Assembly (NCBI GenBank): GCA_009773565.1
Contig: WSXY01000002.1
Location: 357,805 to 381,804, forward strand
Direction of reading: 5' to 3'
DNA length: 24,000 bases
DNA from: Actinomycetota bacterium
Lineage (GTDB): Bacteria > Actinomycetota > Coriobacteriia > Anaerosomatales > Anaerosomataceae
Position 1 is the first letter of the stretch. Each line of letters starts with the position of its first letter. Below, one piece after another: positions 19,521 through 24,000 of the stretch. A program made the translations under genes and the position numbers. Below the pieces are notes generated by a model, which saw only the letters and a program-made list of their open reading frames with translations, was not told the origin of the DNA and ran no database searches.

Positions 19521-19985
19521 ATGCCTGCATTCGTCGCTGACCTTCCCGCATGGCTCAAGTACATCGTCATCACCATCATTCCGTGGATCGAGTTGCGTGG
19601 TGCGATTCCGCTCGCGTTCCAGCAGCACGAGCAGCTGTACCTGCCGCTCATCTTGCTCTCCAACCTCGCCATCTTCTGGCCGGGCTACTACTTCCTCGAG
19701 CTCGTCTATCATCGGCTTCCTGAAGGCGGCTGGGTTCACCGCAAACTCGAGAGCGTCCGCGCGAAGGCGCATCCTCTTGTCGAGAAGTACGGCGTCGTTG
19801 GACTTGCCGTGTTCGTGGCGATTCCGCTGCCGGGAACAGGCGCGTACTCGGGTACTGCGGCCTCGTGGTTGCTCAAGATGGAGCCCAAGAAGGCGTTTCT
19901 TGCCGTCTCACTTGGTGTTGTGGGCGCGTTCCTGATCGTCTGGGCAGCCACTGCGGCCGTTGCCGCCGGCATCAGCCTCTTCTGA
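19521..19985 (+). CDS. Small membrane protein of the putative small multidrug export family (Sm_multidrug_ex-like)
   Basis: IIPWIELRGAIPLAF and AIPLPGTGAYSGTAASWLL are the motifs I associate with this family. It has 4 predicted TM segments, and an RBS AAGGAG lies 9 nt upstream. Confidence 0.7.
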   Translation: MPAFVADLPAWLKYIVITIIPWIELRGAIPLAFQQHEQLYLPLILLSNLAIFWPGYYFLELVYHRLPEGGWVHRKLESVRAKAHPLVEKYGVVGLAVFVAIPLPGTGAYSGTAASWLLKMEPKKAFLAVSLGVVGAFLIVWAATAAVAAGISLF

Positions 19986-20004
19986 GCCGCGGTCACATCG
20001 GGGC

Positions 20005-20853
20005 ATGGGTACGCGACTCCCATATGGCACACCCTTTGGATTCGGGCTGACGTTCGTTTCGCCGGAAGCACTGGCGGCCTTTGCGCCTGAGGGTGTGTCT
20101 CCAGTCGAGGCGCTCGTCGGCGCCTGCAAGGAGCTCGACGCGGCCTTTGCATTCGTTCCCTCGTGGGAGACGTGGGCGCCCGATGCTGTGACGGCGCTTC
20201 GTACTGCGGGCGTGAGCGTCTTCTGGGCCGTCGAGGGCCCGCTCTGGCCCGTGCTCGAGGTGCGAGGACTCCAGGACGGTCTTCGGGCTACCCTGACCCA
20301 TCCGGATGACGTTGCGCGCGAGATGCGCGATGGTGTCGAGCAGGTCATCGCGGATGTACACCGCGGACTCGTGCTGGGCGTCTCGGCGGTCGTCATCGCC
20401 GAGGACCTTGCGGGCTCCGAGGGGCCGCTCGTTGCGCCGGACTTCGCCATAGACGTTCTCACACCGATGCTCGCGGAGATCGTGGGCGTTGCGAACGGCT
20501 TCGGTGCGCCGACAGTCCTGCATTCCGACGGCGAGATCCGCTGGCTGCTTCCGGCTATCAAGCGCGCCGGGTTCGCCGGCATCCATGGCGGTGGCGGACT
20601 GTCGTTTGATGCATTCGAGCGCCTCTTTCGGGCCGCTCACGCTCTCGAGATCGCGGTCATCGGCGGGCTCCCGACCGCGGACCTCCTCGGAGGAACCGCT
20701 CAGGCTGAGATGCTTGGCAGCCGCGTGGGTATGCTCGCCCGCGCCGGTGGACTCCTCGTTGCCGATGATGGCGGCATCACGACGAAGGATGAAGTTCTCT
20801 CATTGCGAGATGCGCTTGTGGTTGCTCGCGCGGCCGCGGGCGGTCGATCCTAA
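20005..20853 (+). CDS. Uroporphyrinogen decarboxylase (URO-D)-like / methyltransferase-like TIM-barrel protein (weak assignment)
   Basis: Coding-like composition. The segment ...VLHSDGEIRWLLPAIKRAGFAGIHG... resembles the HSDG/HSCG region of URO-D-family proteins. The start is uncertain (ATG 20005 versus ATG 19960, which overlaps the upstream gene). Confidence 0.5.
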   Translation: MGTRLPYGTPFGFGLTFVSPEALAAFAPEGVSPVEALVGACKELDAAFAFVPSWETWAPDAVTALRTAGVSVFWAVEGPLWPVLEVRGLQDGLRATLTHPDDVAREMRDGVEQVIADVHRGLVLGVSAVVIAEDLAGSEGPLVAPDFAIDVLTPMLAEIVGVANGFGAPTVLHSDGEIRWLLPAIKRAGFAGIHGGGGLSFDAFERLFRAAHALEIAVIGGLPTADLLGGTAQAEMLGSRVGMLARAGGLLVADDGGITTKDEVLSLRDALVVARAAAGGRS

Positions 20854-20902: not shown

Positions 20903-20930
20903 AACGGGGCACCCCTGAGGGTGCCCCGTT
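20903..20930. terminator. 12-bp GC-rich hairpin between convergent genes, likely a bidirectional terminator
   Basis: AACGGGGCACCC-CTGA-GGGTGCCCCGTT lies between the URO-D-like stop (20853) and the in-frame-restored dsrK-like stop (20955). The frame-A ORF of dsrK-like would read straight through it. Confidence 0.55.
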
Positions 20931-20954: not shown

Positions 20955-22155
20955 CTATGCGTGCGTGGGCTTCTTGCCCTTGAGCGGCATCGCTTCGACC
21001 ACGAGGTCGATGACCTGACGTACATCGATACCCAGATCGTGGAGTGTGTTGAGTTCCTCGATCGAGACGCGTCTCGGTGAACTCCTCCATCGCGACGATG
21101 CCACCGCCGCCACCGCAGCACCATTGCTGCTCGCGGTTGGGCGTAAGGTCGACGAAGTTGTCGGTGAGCGACTGCACGATATCGCGCGGCTGCTCGAAGA
21201 TGCCGCCGTTGCGACCGATCTGACAGGGGTCGTGATAGGTGACGGTGCCTGTGAGAAGGCCCTTCTCGACGGTGATGCTGCCATCTTTGATGTACTCGTC
21301 TACCTTCTCAAGGATGTGGCTCACCTTGAAGGGCATCTTCTCCTTCGACCACGCCTCGTAGAAGAGTTCGAGCACCCGGTATGCGTGTCCGCACTCGGGA
21401 ACCACGATCTCCTTCACGCCGAGACGCTTGGCCTCGTCGATGAAGCGCTTTGTGATGAGACGCGCCTTCTCGATATCCCCGTCGAAGAAGCCGTAGTTGG
21501 CCGCTTCGAACATCGAGATCGTCCAGTTGGCGCCGGCCTCTTCGAAGATGACGGCTGCAGGTCGGATCGAGTGCGCGCCGGCAAGCGCGACGTAGAGGAT
21601 GTCGGCGCCCTGCTTGTCCACCGGGACCTGCGCGTTCGGGTTGCCCGTGATCTCCTGCACCTCGACTTCGATGTCCTTGAAGCCGCTTACGATAACGTCT
21701 TTGAACATCTCGACGTTGTCGCCCTTGAAGAGCGCGGCGTCGGCGAGCTGTCCGAGCATCTCGTTACCGCGCCCGGCCGCGATGAGGATCGCCTTGGCGA
21801 CCGAGAGAATCCATGCGGTGTCGATCGAGAATGGGCAGTAGTACATACAGCGACGGCAGCCGGTGCATGCATACGTGGAGTCGTAGAGTTCGTCGAGAAG
21901 GTTGTCATCGGGATCGCGGGCTTCGTAAAGCGCCGGCACGAACTCGCCGGTCTTCGTGAAGTACTTCTTGTAGATCTGCCGGATGAGTTCTGCACGGCGG
22001 GCGGGGAGGTACTTGAAGTCGCCGGTTCCCACGTACTGGTGACACGCATCTTTGCAGATCGCACATCGCGCGCAGATGTCCATGTACTGCTTGAGCTGGC
22101 GGTTCATCTTCTTGTCGATGACGCCCGTGAGGGTCGTGAGCTGCGTTGAGTCCAT
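20955..22155 (-). pseudogene. DsrK/HdrD-like Fe-S oxidoreductase (2x[4Fe-4S] ferredoxin motifs plus CCG domain), frame-disrupted near 21063. The track calls it as one ORF 20800..22164
   Basis: CARCAICKDAC and CTGCRRCMYYCP are followed by HDPC-X34-CCGGGGG. After ...EEFTETRL the called frame becomes R/G/S/P-rich nonsense, crosses the terminator hairpin and overlaps the convergent gene. Another frame (ORF 20955..21284) continues with the plausible ending IEELNTLHDLGIDVRQVIDLVVEAMPLKGKKPTHA. The expected CxxC about 35 aa after CC is missing. ATG 22155 (RBS GAGGAG 8 nt upstream) is preferred to GTG 22164. Confidence 0.6.
21063..21076. repeat. Perfect 14-bp palindrome CGAGACGCGTCTCG at the dsrK-like frame break, overlapping a second palindrome CTCGATCGAG (21057-21066)
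   Basis: Read directly from the sequence. The frame switch maps to the G at 21063. Confidence 0.9.
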
Positions 22156-22156
22156 G

Positions 22157-22882
22157 CTACTCACTCCTCACAAGGTTGGACGAGAAGGCGCCGATCGAAT
22201 GCACCAGCTTGCTGAACGGGAAGTACATCAGAAACAAGTCCGTGAACAGCATGTGCGTGCCGAGCGAGATCCCGACGTTGCTCTCAAGCAGCTTAGCCGG
22301 GAAGGCGGGCTTGAACGTCATCACGCTCATGAACCACTCGCGATAGGTTGCAGCGTGCACGATGTCGCCGTACACGAACCGCATGTGGTCGCCCATGGCT
22401 ATCACGCCGAGCAGCAAGAAGAGCAGCAGGTAGTCCTCGGGGACCGAGAGGTTCTTGAACGGGCCGTAGGTGCGGCGACCGATCCAGTACAGCACGCCGA
22501 CGAGCATGATGATCCCGGCAATGCTGCCGGACCATGCGGCAAACGAGTTCATGCCCGCCTCGCCGAGCAGCTCGGGCAGGATCGGGAACTCTCGGAAGAG
22601 GCGTGCGTGCCCCACGAACGCGCCCAGTGCTGCGATGTGAAACGCGAAGGCGAACAGCCACATCGTCGGCTCGATCTTGAATGACTGAGGCGCGATGAAC
22701 GTGTCGGTGAGCATCTTGCTGAAACGACCGGCGCCAGTCTTTGGCTTCGGGAACATGCCAAGGCGTATGGGCGACTTAGGGGTCGTCGCCCACTGATAGA
22801 TGCGCCAGGCCATCCCGCCGAAGAACACCACGGCCGTCAGGTAGATGCCCCAGACGGAGGTGATCCAGAGGTAGGTTTCCAT
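22157..22882 (-). CDS. DsrM/HdrE/NarI-like integral membrane cytochrome b (quinol-interacting subunit)
   Basis: 241 aa with ~5-6 TM helices and conserved His pairs (FAFHIAALGAFVGHARL, GDHMRF, LGTHMLF) as in the nitrate-reductase-gamma fold. Its TAG lies 1 nt before the dsrK-like ATG. Confidence 0.8.
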   Translation of the reverse strand: METYLWITSVWGIYLTAVVFFGGMAWRIYQWATTPKSPIRLGMFPKPKTGAGRFSKMLTDTFIAPQSFKIEPTMWLFAFAFHIAALGAFVGHARLFREFPILPELLGEAGMNSFAAWSGSIAGIIMLVGVLYWIGRRTYGPFKNLSVPEDYLLLFLLLGVIAMGDHMRFVYGDIVHAATYREWFMSVMTFKPAFPAKLLESNVGISLGTHMLFTDLFLMYFPFSKLVHSIGAFSSNLVRSE

Positions 22883-22890
22883 GGTTGTCT

Positions 22891-23133
22891 CTACTTGACG
22901 CGCTTGACGAGGAAGACGAACTCTCCGCCGACCTTCTCGGCCTGCAGGACCTCGTTACCGGTCGACTTCGCCCACGCGGGGATGTCGGCCATCGCGCCCG
23001 GGTCGGTTGCGACTGCACGGATGACGCCGCCTACCTCGACCTTGCCGATGTTCTGGCTGACTTTCACCATCGGGAGCGGGCAGAGCAGGCCTTTGAGGTC
23101 GAGTTCCAGGTCGACTTTGGTCTCATCGGACAT
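22891..23133 (-). CDS. TusA/SirA-family sulfur carrier protein
   Basis: 80 aa with LDLKGLLCPLPMVKVSQNI (the CPxP active-site motif) and ...DPGAMADIPAWAKSTGNEV. The RBS is AAGGAGA. Confidence 0.88.
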   Translation of the reverse strand: MSDETKVDLELDLKGLLCPLPMVKVSQNIGKVEVGGVIRAVATDPGAMADIPAWAKSTGNEVLQAEKVGGEFVFLVKRVK

Positions 23134-23151
23134 GGTGGTCTCCTTTCACGG

Positions 23152-23169
23152 GTCGCGCGTTCGCGCGAC
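23152..23169. repeat. 18-nt palindrome GTCGCGCGTTCGCGCGAC in the dsrE-like/tusA-like spacer (intercistronic hairpin or operator)
   Basis: Read directly from the sequence. It lies 19 nt upstream of the tusA-like ATG, just 5' of its RBS. Confidence 0.6.
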
Positions 23170-23205
23170 GGTGCGCTGACTGTGCAGTGGGGTTCGCTTT
23201 TGCGG

Positions 23206-23694
23206 CTAGATGAACAGAGAGATATCCGCTTCCTGGGCCTTCAGGAGGAAGAAGCCGACACCAACAGGCTCCTTGACGCCCCCAATGAAGGACTCCTGCG
23301 GAATCTCCATTACATCCATGGACATCTGGCACCCGTACATGTTGACGCCGAGGTCGATGGCAAGGTCGCGAAGGTCGATGAGTTTGCTTACGTTGTGATT
23401 ACCCATCATCTTCCCGAACATCCAGCGACCCATCCCACCGAAGCCGAATTTCGAGGGGTTTGACTTGGTGATGTCCCCGCCGTACATCAGGCCGAGCATA
23501 CGACCGAAGAATGTCTTGCCAGTGCTGACGTTCTTCTTGAGCGCGCGCAGGCCCCAGAATGTGAAGAACATGGTGACTTCCATGCCCATCGCGGCCGCGC
23601 CCGTTGCAATGATGAAAGCGCCGAACAGCTTGTCCATATCGCCGCTCATGACCACCATCGCGAGACTCTTCTGATGGCTCTCTTCTTCCGACAT
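23206..23694 (-). CDS. DsrE/DsrF-like (DrsE_2 / YrkE-type) sulfur-transfer family protein
   Basis: LAMVVMSGDMDKLFGAFIIATGAAAMGMEVTMFFTFWGL...NMYGCQMSMDVMEI...EADISLFI matches the family, including the conserved Cys in YGCQMSMD. The RBS is AAGGAGG. Confidence 0.85.
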   Translation of the reverse strand: MSEEESHQKSLAMVVMSGDMDKLFGAFIIATGAAAMGMEVTMFFTFWGLRALKKNVSTGKTFFGRMLGLMYGGDITKSNPSKFGFGGMGRWMFGKMMGNHNVSKLIDLRDLAIDLGVNMYGCQMSMDVMEIPQESFIGGVKEPVGVGFFLLKAQEADISLFI

Positions 23695-23735
23695 CGTGCG
23701 GTCCTCCTTTGTGACTCAGGGTATTTCCACGGCCC

Positions 23736-24000
23736 TCAGGCCGTTTTTGCCTTCTCAGATTCGTCGGTTCCGGCGGTTCGAGCCTGTTCTCCAAGTGATT
23801 CTCGGAGAACATCGGTGATGAGATCGAATGCTGTGATGATCTTAGGGTTCGCGATCGCGTAGTAGATGCTGCTTCCCGCGCGCCGGGTTCGAACCACACC
23901 GCGACTGCGGAGGATGGAGAGGTGTTGGGAAAGCGTCGCCTGGGGGATGTCCGTTTGGCTTGCGATCTCACCGACGGAAACCTCCCCGTCTCGCAGGCGG
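23736..24000 (-). CDS. ArsR/SmtB-family HTH transcriptional regulator, 5'-truncated by the window edge (absent from the ORF track because no start codon lies in the window)
   Basis: The minus-strand frame from 23999 reads RLRDGEVSVGEIASQTDIPQATLSQHLSILRSRGVVRTRRAGSSIYYAIANPKI...EKAKTA and stops at TGA 23736-23738. The HTH-wing pattern is typical ArsR. The stop lies 41 nt upstream of the dsrE-like ATG. Confidence 0.8.
   Translation of the reverse strand, partial: RLRDGEVSVGEIASQTDIPQATLSQHLSILRSRGVVRTRRAGSSIYYAIANPKIITAFDLITDVLRESLGEQARTAGTDESEKAKTA

Follow-up and report, generated by a model that had tools for sequence, protein, structure and literature searches.

The window examined here is a stretch of 24,000 nucleotides (nt) on contig WSXY01000002.1 (positions 357,805 to 381,804, forward strand) of genome assembly GCA_009773565.1, which belongs to an Actinomycetota bacterium of the order containing Anaerosoma. 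The assembly is a 2.27-Mb draft of 25 contigs with scaffold Ns, and was 98.5% complete with 0.5% contamination. At the right end of the window, five minus-strand genes in the same direction encode, in order, an ArsR regulator, a DrsE_2-family protein, TusA, a NarI/DsrM-like subunit, and a DsrK-like CCG protein, with spacers of 1-72 nt. By sequence comparison, this cassette appears to be an uncharacterized module of the DsrMK type that brings its own carriers and its own regulator; its members scored below the cut-offs of the DsrK, DsrM, DsrE2, and BigR models. The features of the locus were as follows.

23736-24000, minus strand: ArsR/SmtB-family repressor gene, of which the 3' 264 nt lie in the window and the full gene runs to 24080 (114 amino acids, aa; HTH_5 1.7e-9)
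23206-23694, minus strand: DrsE_2-family (DsrE2-like) putative sulfur carrier (162 aa; PF13686 1.8e-43, 148.6 bits, cut-off 25)
22891-23133, minus strand: TusA-family sulfur carrier (80 aa; PF01206 5.1e-20, 71.5 bits, cut-off 28.6)
22157-22882, minus strand: NarI/DsrM-like dihaem cytochrome b membrane subunit, as predicted (241 aa; PF02665 6.1e-16, 59 bits, cut-off 22.9)
21064-22155, minus strand: DsrK-like CCG Fe-S protein, 5' part (residues 1-364 of 427 aa), in frame from the ATG at 22155 (Fer4_8 8e-10, CCG 7.5e-10)
20955-21063, minus strand: 3' remnant of the DsrK-like gene in another frame (IEELN...KKPTHA), with the stop codon TAG at 20955-20957
20906-20927, minus strand: hairpin (GGGGCACCC...GGGTGCCCC) followed by a T-run, the likely operon terminator
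23152-23169, no strand assigned: GC-rich perfect palindrome GTCGCGCGAACGCGCGAC of 18 nt in the spacer between the dsrE-like gene and tusA, just before the tusA ribosome-binding site, read directly from the sequence

All five genes were found where the initial annotation had placed them and with the composition it described, including the active-site Cys of the DsrE-like protein in YGCQMSMD (Cys122) and the TusA Cys in CPLP (Cys18). The ATG of the DsrK-like gene lies 1 nt past the stop codon of the NarI-like gene. The convergent gene reported downstream behind a terminator was also located: the hairpin and T-run lie past the stop codon of the operon, and the convergent neighbor occupies 19960-20853 on the plus strand. 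In a DNA alignment, an equivalent hairpin lay past the stop codon in the relatives L002 and L003. The palindrome GTCGCGCGAACGCGCGAC is unlike the operator upstream of arsR and could be an mRNA hairpin.

The distribution of the cassette was surveyed with one genome per species, which gave 66 loci, and the gene order was read wherever a flank was available. The order ArsR-DrsE_2-TusA-NarI-like-CCG was the same in 60+ loci, which came from Coriobacteriia, Dehalococcoidia, Desulfobacterales, and Humimicrobium. Because it recurs in this number of independent loci from several phyla, with unrelated flanks, the order lies far outside what chance would give. For the CCG protein, identity was 71-92% in Coriobacteriia, 56-59% in Dehalococcoidia, 52% in a Desulfobacterales metagenome-assembled genome, and 54% in Humimicrobium. 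At one locus (L066), the NarI-like and CCG pair was seen and the other cassette genes were not. Clustering of open reading frames (ORFs) over the 66 loci found no flanking gene families common to different phyla, only lineage-specific flanks; the clustering used a crude ORF caller, which gave many antisense artefacts in GC-rich DNA. Flanks specific to Anaerosomatales were a chemotaxis/pilus-like cluster, a URO-D-like gene, and a beta-propeller gene, none of them common with Dehalococcoidia. Within the order, a strong orthologue was present in 72 of 146 species genomes, and in 54 of the 99 genomes that were at least 90% complete. Full-text literature searches found no published description of the cassette, in line with the earlier remark that no characterized system has this composition.

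The DsrK-like protein carries two CxxCxxCxxxC motifs (C28/31/34/38 and C97/100/103/107), and these cysteines, together with C311, C346, C347, C386, and C389, were conserved in 60-61 of 61 orthologues. The orthologues have a complete Cx34CCx38CxxC motif, and the window copy is without the segment that carries C386/C389. The intact orthologue P0001 was compared with the NCBIfam models and scored 298 bits for DsrK, 235 for TmcB, 200 for HmcF, 55 for GlpC, and 18 for GlcF. The DsrK equivalog NF045796 has a cut-off of 400 bits, so P0001 fell below it, and three other proteins of the cassette clade (P0121, P0122, and P0124) scored 235-269 bits; true DsrK representatives scored 413-622 bits (P0140 622, P0156 418, P0131 413). 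P0122 and P0124 are remote relatives, 36-45% identical, and a fused form of 661 aa is also among the more distant members of the clade.

A glycolate/lactate/glycerol-3-phosphate-type CCG enzyme was considered and ruled out by the hidden Markov model (HMM) scores (GlpC 55 and GlcF 18 vs DsrK 298). The large subunits had been described as sulfur-linked, and the HMM scores did place them in the DsrK/HmcF/TmcB and DsrM/NarI groups, not with the GlpC/GlcF/LldE type.

A search covered 1.84 billion representative proteins, and a tree was built of 108 proteins, with clades labelled by NCBIfam scores. The cassette CCG proteins formed one clade outside the DsrK clade, with a support of 99 in the SH-like approximate likelihood ratio test (SH-aLRT). 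The cassette clade, the true-DsrK clade, and an HmcF/TmcB-like clade formed an unresolved three-way split. The DsrK affinity of the initial annotation was thus upheld in part: the protein stands near DsrK and the HmcF/TmcB-like proteins but in its own clade outside true DsrK. Judged by scores and tree, the cassette CCG protein is a distinct subfamily and not DsrK itself.

The AlphaFold model of the protein (predicted local distance difference test score, pLDDT, 84) matched mycobacterial EtfD best (template modeling score, TM, 0.67), followed by LutA and HdrB, in a structure library without a DsrK structure. Other CCG-domain proteins were also observed. The only other one in this genome (G000:C2:10363-11775; L005 979-2391) is a 470-aa fusion of an HdrB-like part (TIGR03288, 259 bits, below cut-off) and then an HdrC-like ferredoxin part. 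In most genomes of the order, a separate EtfD-like fused NarI/Fe-S/CCG protein of ~1050 aa matched weakly (~1e-20, 30% identity), and it occurs regardless of the cassette, for example at G017:C1:415713-416720 and G115:C8:134304-135413.

The DsrK-like gene of the window is not intact: 83 nt were absent from it in comparison with 95%-identical relatives. In a DNA alignment with L002 and L003, the difference was a single gap at 21063/21064. It takes out 28 codons (ASG...LACPCENCRLQ) and shifts the frame, so that the frame ending at 20955 differs from the one opened at ATG 22155 and the native C-terminus (IEELN...KKPTHA) is left out of frame. The deleted segment holds C386 and C389, the last CxxC of the CCG motif, which is conserved in 60 of 61 orthologues. 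Orthologues were 419-439 aa long, and the closest one, P0001, has 427 aa and is 95% identical. With its terminal CxxC gone and its frame shifted, the catalytic gene probably leaves the system inactive in this genome.

We consider the gap to be a real deletion with reasonable, though not strong, confidence. A smaller but still substantial chance is given to an artefact of assembly or consensus, in which case the living cells would have an intact, working operon. The assembly is a draft (25 contigs, with scaffold Ns), the gene is intact in all other orthologues, including that of the same-genus genome G043, and the remaining operon genes show no decay. Two exact-junction scans found the deleted allele in no other metagenome contig, a result that could be counted for an artefact but is uninformative either way. 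However, short-read assemblers rarely make clean 83-nt internal deletions in unique sequence, and there were no Ns in the window or within 65 kb. Furthermore, a CGTCTC-type hexamer stands at the left edge of the gap and recurs near the right edge in relatives, as a slippage deletion would give, and the beta-propeller neighbor of the closest relative is also missing here. If the deletion is real, the broken copy is a natural loss-of-function case.

The best curated family for the NarI-like subunit was DsrM (NF038037), at 77 bits and below the cut-off of 300. Its residues His82, His92, His210, and His228 were conserved in 64-65 of 65 proteins, at spacings of 10 and 18 residues, which we take to be those of the NarI haem ligands. 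The subunit is predicted to be a dihaem b cytochrome.

Both sulfur carriers retained their cysteines across the cassette. Cys122 of the DsrE-like protein was invariant (63/63 cassette proteins), and Cys18 of TusA was conserved in 63 of 64. The DsrE-like protein scored 84 bits with the DsrE2 model NF047629, below the cut-off of 210. Its full-length alignment to 3PNX, a crystal structure of a soluble protein, takes in the active-site YxCQxS, and this match argues against a membrane form like the A. vinosum-type DsrE2A with its two transmembrane helices. TusA reached 44.1 bits with the E. coli-type TusA equivalog, below the cut-off of 78, and 40.7 bits with the selenium-linked YedF model. DsrE/TusA modules are established components in the handling of sulfane sulfur, and for DsrE4 proteins a part in the detoxification of reactive sulfur species has been proposed (PMC11094781).

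This genome has one TusA gene and one DrsE_2 gene, both of them in the cassette. In the order-wide survey, most cassette-bearing relatives had a second TusA paralogue outside the cassette. All 18 near-complete genomes that were without any TusA were also without the cassette; this co-inheritance is confounded by the second paralogue in most relatives. At a Dehalococcoidales locus (L059 4717-5246), two tandem TusA genes were observed in the cassette, 74% and 56% identical to the TusA of the window.

The initial annotation saw no dsrC or dsrAB near the operon, and this holds genome-wide: neither DsrC (PF04358) nor the sulfite reductase domain (PF01077, NIR_SIR) had a match in the genome, and DsrC was found in 0 of the 99 near-complete genomes of the order. 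The genome has one rhodanese gene, away from the operon, and no YeeE/YedE-family gene. A thiosulfate-import reading was ruled out for this genome because of the latter absence, and the YTD cluster and DsrEFH type II were ruled out because their composition differs (YedE, DsrEFH-like trio).

As there is no DsrC, the DsrMK-like enzyme must use another partner, and the invariably linked carriers are the obvious candidates. We propose, with confidence a little short of even, that the operon is a self-contained, auto-repressed unit encoding a quinol-linked membrane reductase that acts on sulfane sulfur bound to carriers, and that it serves homeostasis or detoxification rather than respiratory growth. 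Reactive sulfane sulfur (persulfide or polysulfide) would be captured as Cys-persulfide on TusA Cys18 and Cys122 of the DsrE2-like protein, possibly as a TusA-S(n)-DsrE bridge, and the two carriers would fill the place that DsrC holds for DsrMK. Electrons would pass from menaquinol over the two haems b of the NarI/DsrM-like subunit to the two [4Fe-4S] clusters. At the CCG-bound Fe-S site on the cytoplasmic side, the DsrK-like subunit would then reduce the carrier sulfur to H2S and free carriers. The most likely role would be to keep sulfane sulfur in balance or to detoxify it in strict anaerobes, to which the O2-dependent route by persulfide dioxygenase is closed. We infer the substrate, direction, electron donor, and inducer of the cassette from its genes. 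A TusA/DsrE-bound persulfide, or a protein di- or trisulfide, had been suggested as the substrate of the DsrK-like site; the family affinities and the absence of DsrC support this, but its part as a reductase substrate is likewise inferred.

The same complex might instead run in the oxidative direction. Sulfide or a carrier dithiol would be oxidized with electrons going to menaquinone, which would load TusA/DsrE for biosynthesis or provide a minor electron source. DsrMKJOP has been proposed to run in reverse in sulfur oxidizers and cable bacteria (PMC10504309; PMC13293266), EtfD, the nearest solved architecture, delivers electrons to the quinone pool, and TusA is a general sulfur donor whose cassette copy is the only one in this genome. 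However, no downstream oxidizing machinery was found, with DsrAB and DsrC absent, and the second TusA in most relatives means that biosynthesis need not depend on the cassette. That the catalytic gene is lost here and the cassette is missing from about half of the order also speaks against an essential biosynthetic role. We therefore regard the oxidative direction as quite unlikely.

For the reductase of carrier-bound sulfane sulfur, the regulator is a further line of evidence. The full ArsR ORF (L001 3736-4080) encodes 114 aa, and Cys8 and Cys14 fall in the part past the window end. It scored 82.7 bits with the ArsR/SmtB model NF033788, above the cut-off of 55, which makes it a member of that family. 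Among named regulator types BigR was nearest, at 66 bits and below the cut-off of 155 (NF040642), and the nearest solved relatives included NolR, Rv0081, HlyU, BigR, and SqrR. Both cysteines lie in the N-terminal helix; Cys14 was invariant (59/59 cassette regulators) and Cys8 was confined to Coriobacteriia. The regulator has Asp27 where HlyU has the ILC cysteine and has no Cys in its C-terminal part, so the alpha2/alpha5 pair of BigR/SqrR is absent. The earlier statement that the visible ArsR part contains no Cys was right for the fragment, but the full regulator carries two. Similarly, the BigR/SqrR-style dithiol switch described as not evident is indeed missing in its geometry, but the conserved Cys14 makes a thiol switch plausible.

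A candidate operator, ATTCGAATATTCGCAT, was found at ~24103-24118, ~22 nt upstream of the arsR start. Its 16-nt core had one copy in the 2.27-Mb genome at up to 2 mismatches, with 0.0006 expected by chance. An AT-rich, ACATTCGCATATTCGAATGT-like palindrome was conserved upstream of arsR in Coriobacteriia and Dehalococcoidia, and in Dehalococcoidia it comes directly after a TTGACA/-10 pair. A single genomic copy, conserved upstream of arsR, suggests auto-repression of the operon by a regulator that serves it alone. ArsR would sit on this palindrome over its own promoter, and its release would probably occur by sulfane-sulfur modification of Cys14.

A regulator of this family could also point away from sulfane sulfur. 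The substrate would then be another chalcogen or metalloid (selenium, tellurium, or arsenic), or the complex would be an EtfD-like general electron gate, with ArsR as a metalloid sensor. The regulator falls into the ArsR/SmtB subfamily of metalloregulators (NF033788), TusA matched the selenium-linked YedF model nearly as well (40.7 vs 44.1 bits), and EtfD has the same architecture in a non-sulfur use. However, neither an ArsR-type CVC nor a CadC-type metal site was found in the regulator, only Cys14 with or without Cys8. In addition, the TusA and DrsE_2 linkage is invariant across phyla, and the HMM scores point to DsrK/HmcF/TmcB. In the cassette and its conserved flanks, which set the scope of this check, ars, selenium, and etf genes were all absent. 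We regard these readings as very unlikely.

Two cultured carriers are relevant to the question of respiration. The type strains Anaerosoma tenue and Parvivirga hydrogeniphila, identified by exact protein look-up, each have all five genes of the cassette intact. Respiration of S0 and thiosulfate is described for A. tenue, and no reduction of sulfate, sulfite, thiosulfate, or S0 for P. hydrogeniphila; the description of the isolates does not mention the cassette (PMC9686372). Because P. hydrogeniphila does not reduce sulfur compounds and has an intact cassette, the cassette is insufficient for sulfur respiration.

Energy-conserving sulfur respiration would make the complex a terminal, cytoplasm-facing reductase of sulfane derived from S0, polysulfide, or thiosulfate. 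TusA/DsrE would deliver the substrate, and quinol oxidation at the outer face would build a proton-motive force as in NarGHI or DsrMK. The closest families are respiratory DsrMK, Hmc, and Tmc modules, and the cassette carriers are anaerobes of sulfidic subsurface habitats. For the S0- and thiosulfate-respiring A. tenue, the describing authors found no clear thiosulfate reductase except an FdnGHI-like complex (PMC9686372). Against this stands the P. hydrogeniphila phenotype, as well as the small dedicated repressor with a single genomic operator, which is typical of stress and detoxification operons. The cassette is also present in just about half of the order and broken in this genome, which has no YeeE/YedE-type sulfur importer. 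We judge a respiratory function unlikely. The phenotype of P. hydrogeniphila, with its intact cassette, speaks against a respiratory sulfur reductase and for a homeostatic role. Taken with a repressor that is dedicated to the cassette and bears a Cys, a patchy distribution, and what looks like a loss in this genome, it favors homeostasis or detoxification of sulfane sulfur over respiration.

Several points weigh against the proposed reductase. The window copy is broken, so the physiology of this organism cannot inform the function of the cassette. The regulator is without the BigR/SqrR cysteine pair and has a single conserved Cys outside Coriobacteriia. EtfD, the sole solved protein of the same architecture (TM 0.67), has no part in sulfur chemistry and passes electrons to the quinone pool; by this precedent, the fold by itself tells neither the direction nor the substrate. 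As a reductant, menaquinol is weak for persulfide/sulfide couples. An MqnA-family gene (260 bits) was present in this genome and another in P. hydrogeniphila, and UbiA-family genes were present in this genome, P. hydrogeniphila, and A. tenue, but the search of the A. tenue genome gave no MqnA-family gene. Respiratory quinones were reported as 'not detected' in A. tenue or P. hydrogeniphila (PMC9686372). The quinol link, which is suggested by the NarI/DsrM-type subunit, is therefore uncertain and is weakened by the quinone report.

The cassette was compared with known systems, of which DsrMK with DsrC would be nearest in its way of working. DsrMK, the minimal form of DsrMKJOP, is described together with DsrC as the menaquinol:DsrC-trisulfide oxidoreductase of sulfite and sulfate reducers (PMC10504309; Barbosa et al. 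2024 as cited in PMC13293266). Like DsrMK, the cassette combines a predicted NarI-type dihaem cytochrome b with a cytoplasmic protein that, in intact copies, bears a pair of [4Fe-4S] motifs and a complete CCG motif; its best-scoring families are DsrK and DsrM, and the expected substrate would be sulfur on or between protein cysteines. Unlike DsrMK, it scored below the cut-offs (298 vs 400; 77 vs 300), forms a separate clade, has no DsrC/DsrAB, and is linked to TusA, DrsE_2, and ArsR.

HdrDE of cytochrome-containing methanogens also pairs a b-type cytochrome with an HdrD-type CCG protein for cytoplasmic disulfide reduction with electrons from a membrane carrier, and the HdrB fold was matched (TMt 0.60-0.67). 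However, the substrate of HdrDE is CoM-S-S-CoB, HmcF and TmcB belong to multihaem cytochrome c complexes, and none of HdrDE, Hme, Hmc, or Tmc is linked to TusA/DsrE. EtfD (Rv0338c)/EMO, PDB 9OJN, has the same overall architecture (TMq 0.67, E 8.7e-12; sequence match 1.7e-12). It is an electron transfer flavoprotein (ETF):menaquinone oxidoreductase that connects a cytoplasmic redox partner to the quinone pool via haem b and Fe-S/CCG domains (PMC13083937, PMC8593149). Unlike the cassette, whose parts are separate genes with 17% identity, EtfD is a single fused protein of ~1000 aa that takes ETF electrons in fatty-acid oxidation.

The persulfide operons of aerobes have BigR/SqrR/HlyU or CstR regulators with sulfide:quinone oxidoreductase (SQR), persulfide dioxygenase, rhodanese, and TusA/DsrE-type domains, as in S. 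aureus cst and B. subtilis yrk. The cassette resembles them in its small dedicated ArsR-family repressor with a conserved Cys and in its TusA and DrsE_2-type carriers. It differs in having no SQR, persulfide dioxygenase, or rhodanese, and its disposal enzyme would be reductive and membrane-bound. Fused rhodanese-TusA-DsrE persulfide reductases (Pcar_0429 as proposed, PMC3543383) similarly relay sulfane sulfur on TusA/DsrE cysteines and release sulfide by a reductase, but these are soluble NAD(P)H flavoproteins, whereas the cassette would form a haem b/Fe-S membrane complex with separate carriers. The sHdr-LbpA system with TusA/DsrE3 (PMC11094781, PMC4175335) shares the TusA and DsrE-family carriers beside an Hdr-type CCG enzyme. 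However, sHdr is soluble and HdrABC-like, uses lipoate-binding proteins, and is oxidative in sulfur oxidizers, and its other genes are absent from the cassette.

The surroundings of the operon were also recorded. Between 20853 and 20955 of the window (~100 nt) there is no beta-propeller gene, which in L002 (9386-11068), the closest relative and a JGI contig, and in ~10 other Anaerosomatales loci encodes a co-directional PQQ-like protein of ~550 aa. At those loci, it sits between the cassette and the convergent URO-D-like gene. Beyond position 24000, the check that had been suggested showed no larger known operon and no further sulfur genes. The flank is a chemotaxis/pilus-like cluster divergent from arsR (L001 4378-13664), which encodes a PatA_N-domain protein, CheR-TPR, a response regulator, an MshEN/T2SSE ATPase, two CheW, a methyl-accepting chemotaxis protein, CheA, and CheB. 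This cluster is conserved beside the cassette in close relatives, and the cultured relatives have been described as non-motile with pili-like appendages.

New are the disrupted gene in this genome, the lack of DsrC throughout the order, the placement of the CCG protein in its own clade, the operator with a single-Cys regulator, and two cultured carriers with opposite phenotypes. DsrMK-type genes are usually taken as markers of dissimilatory sulfite reduction. The cassette pairs such genes with TusA/DsrE2 in lineages without DsrC/DsrAB, and they can therefore mislead metabolic predictions from metagenomes. With the opposite sulfur phenotypes of the two cultured carriers, the unique operator, and the single invariant Cys of the regulator, the question is directly testable.

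More tentatively still, the cassette may be a widespread, unnamed anaerobic counterpart of the SQR/persulfide-dioxygenase system. It would be a membrane quinol:protein-persulfide (or TusA-S(n)-DsrE) reductase, in which two carriers replace DsrC and which is switched by a new single-cysteine ArsR subfamily with an operator conserved from Actinomycetota to Chloroflexota. If this is true, it would provide a missing route for strict anaerobes to dispose of, or draw a little energy from, intracellular sulfane sulfur. The function, if it holds, would fill a gap: it would show how strict anaerobes that live in sulfide can deal with persulfide and polysulfide inside the cell when no oxygen-dependent enzyme is at hand.

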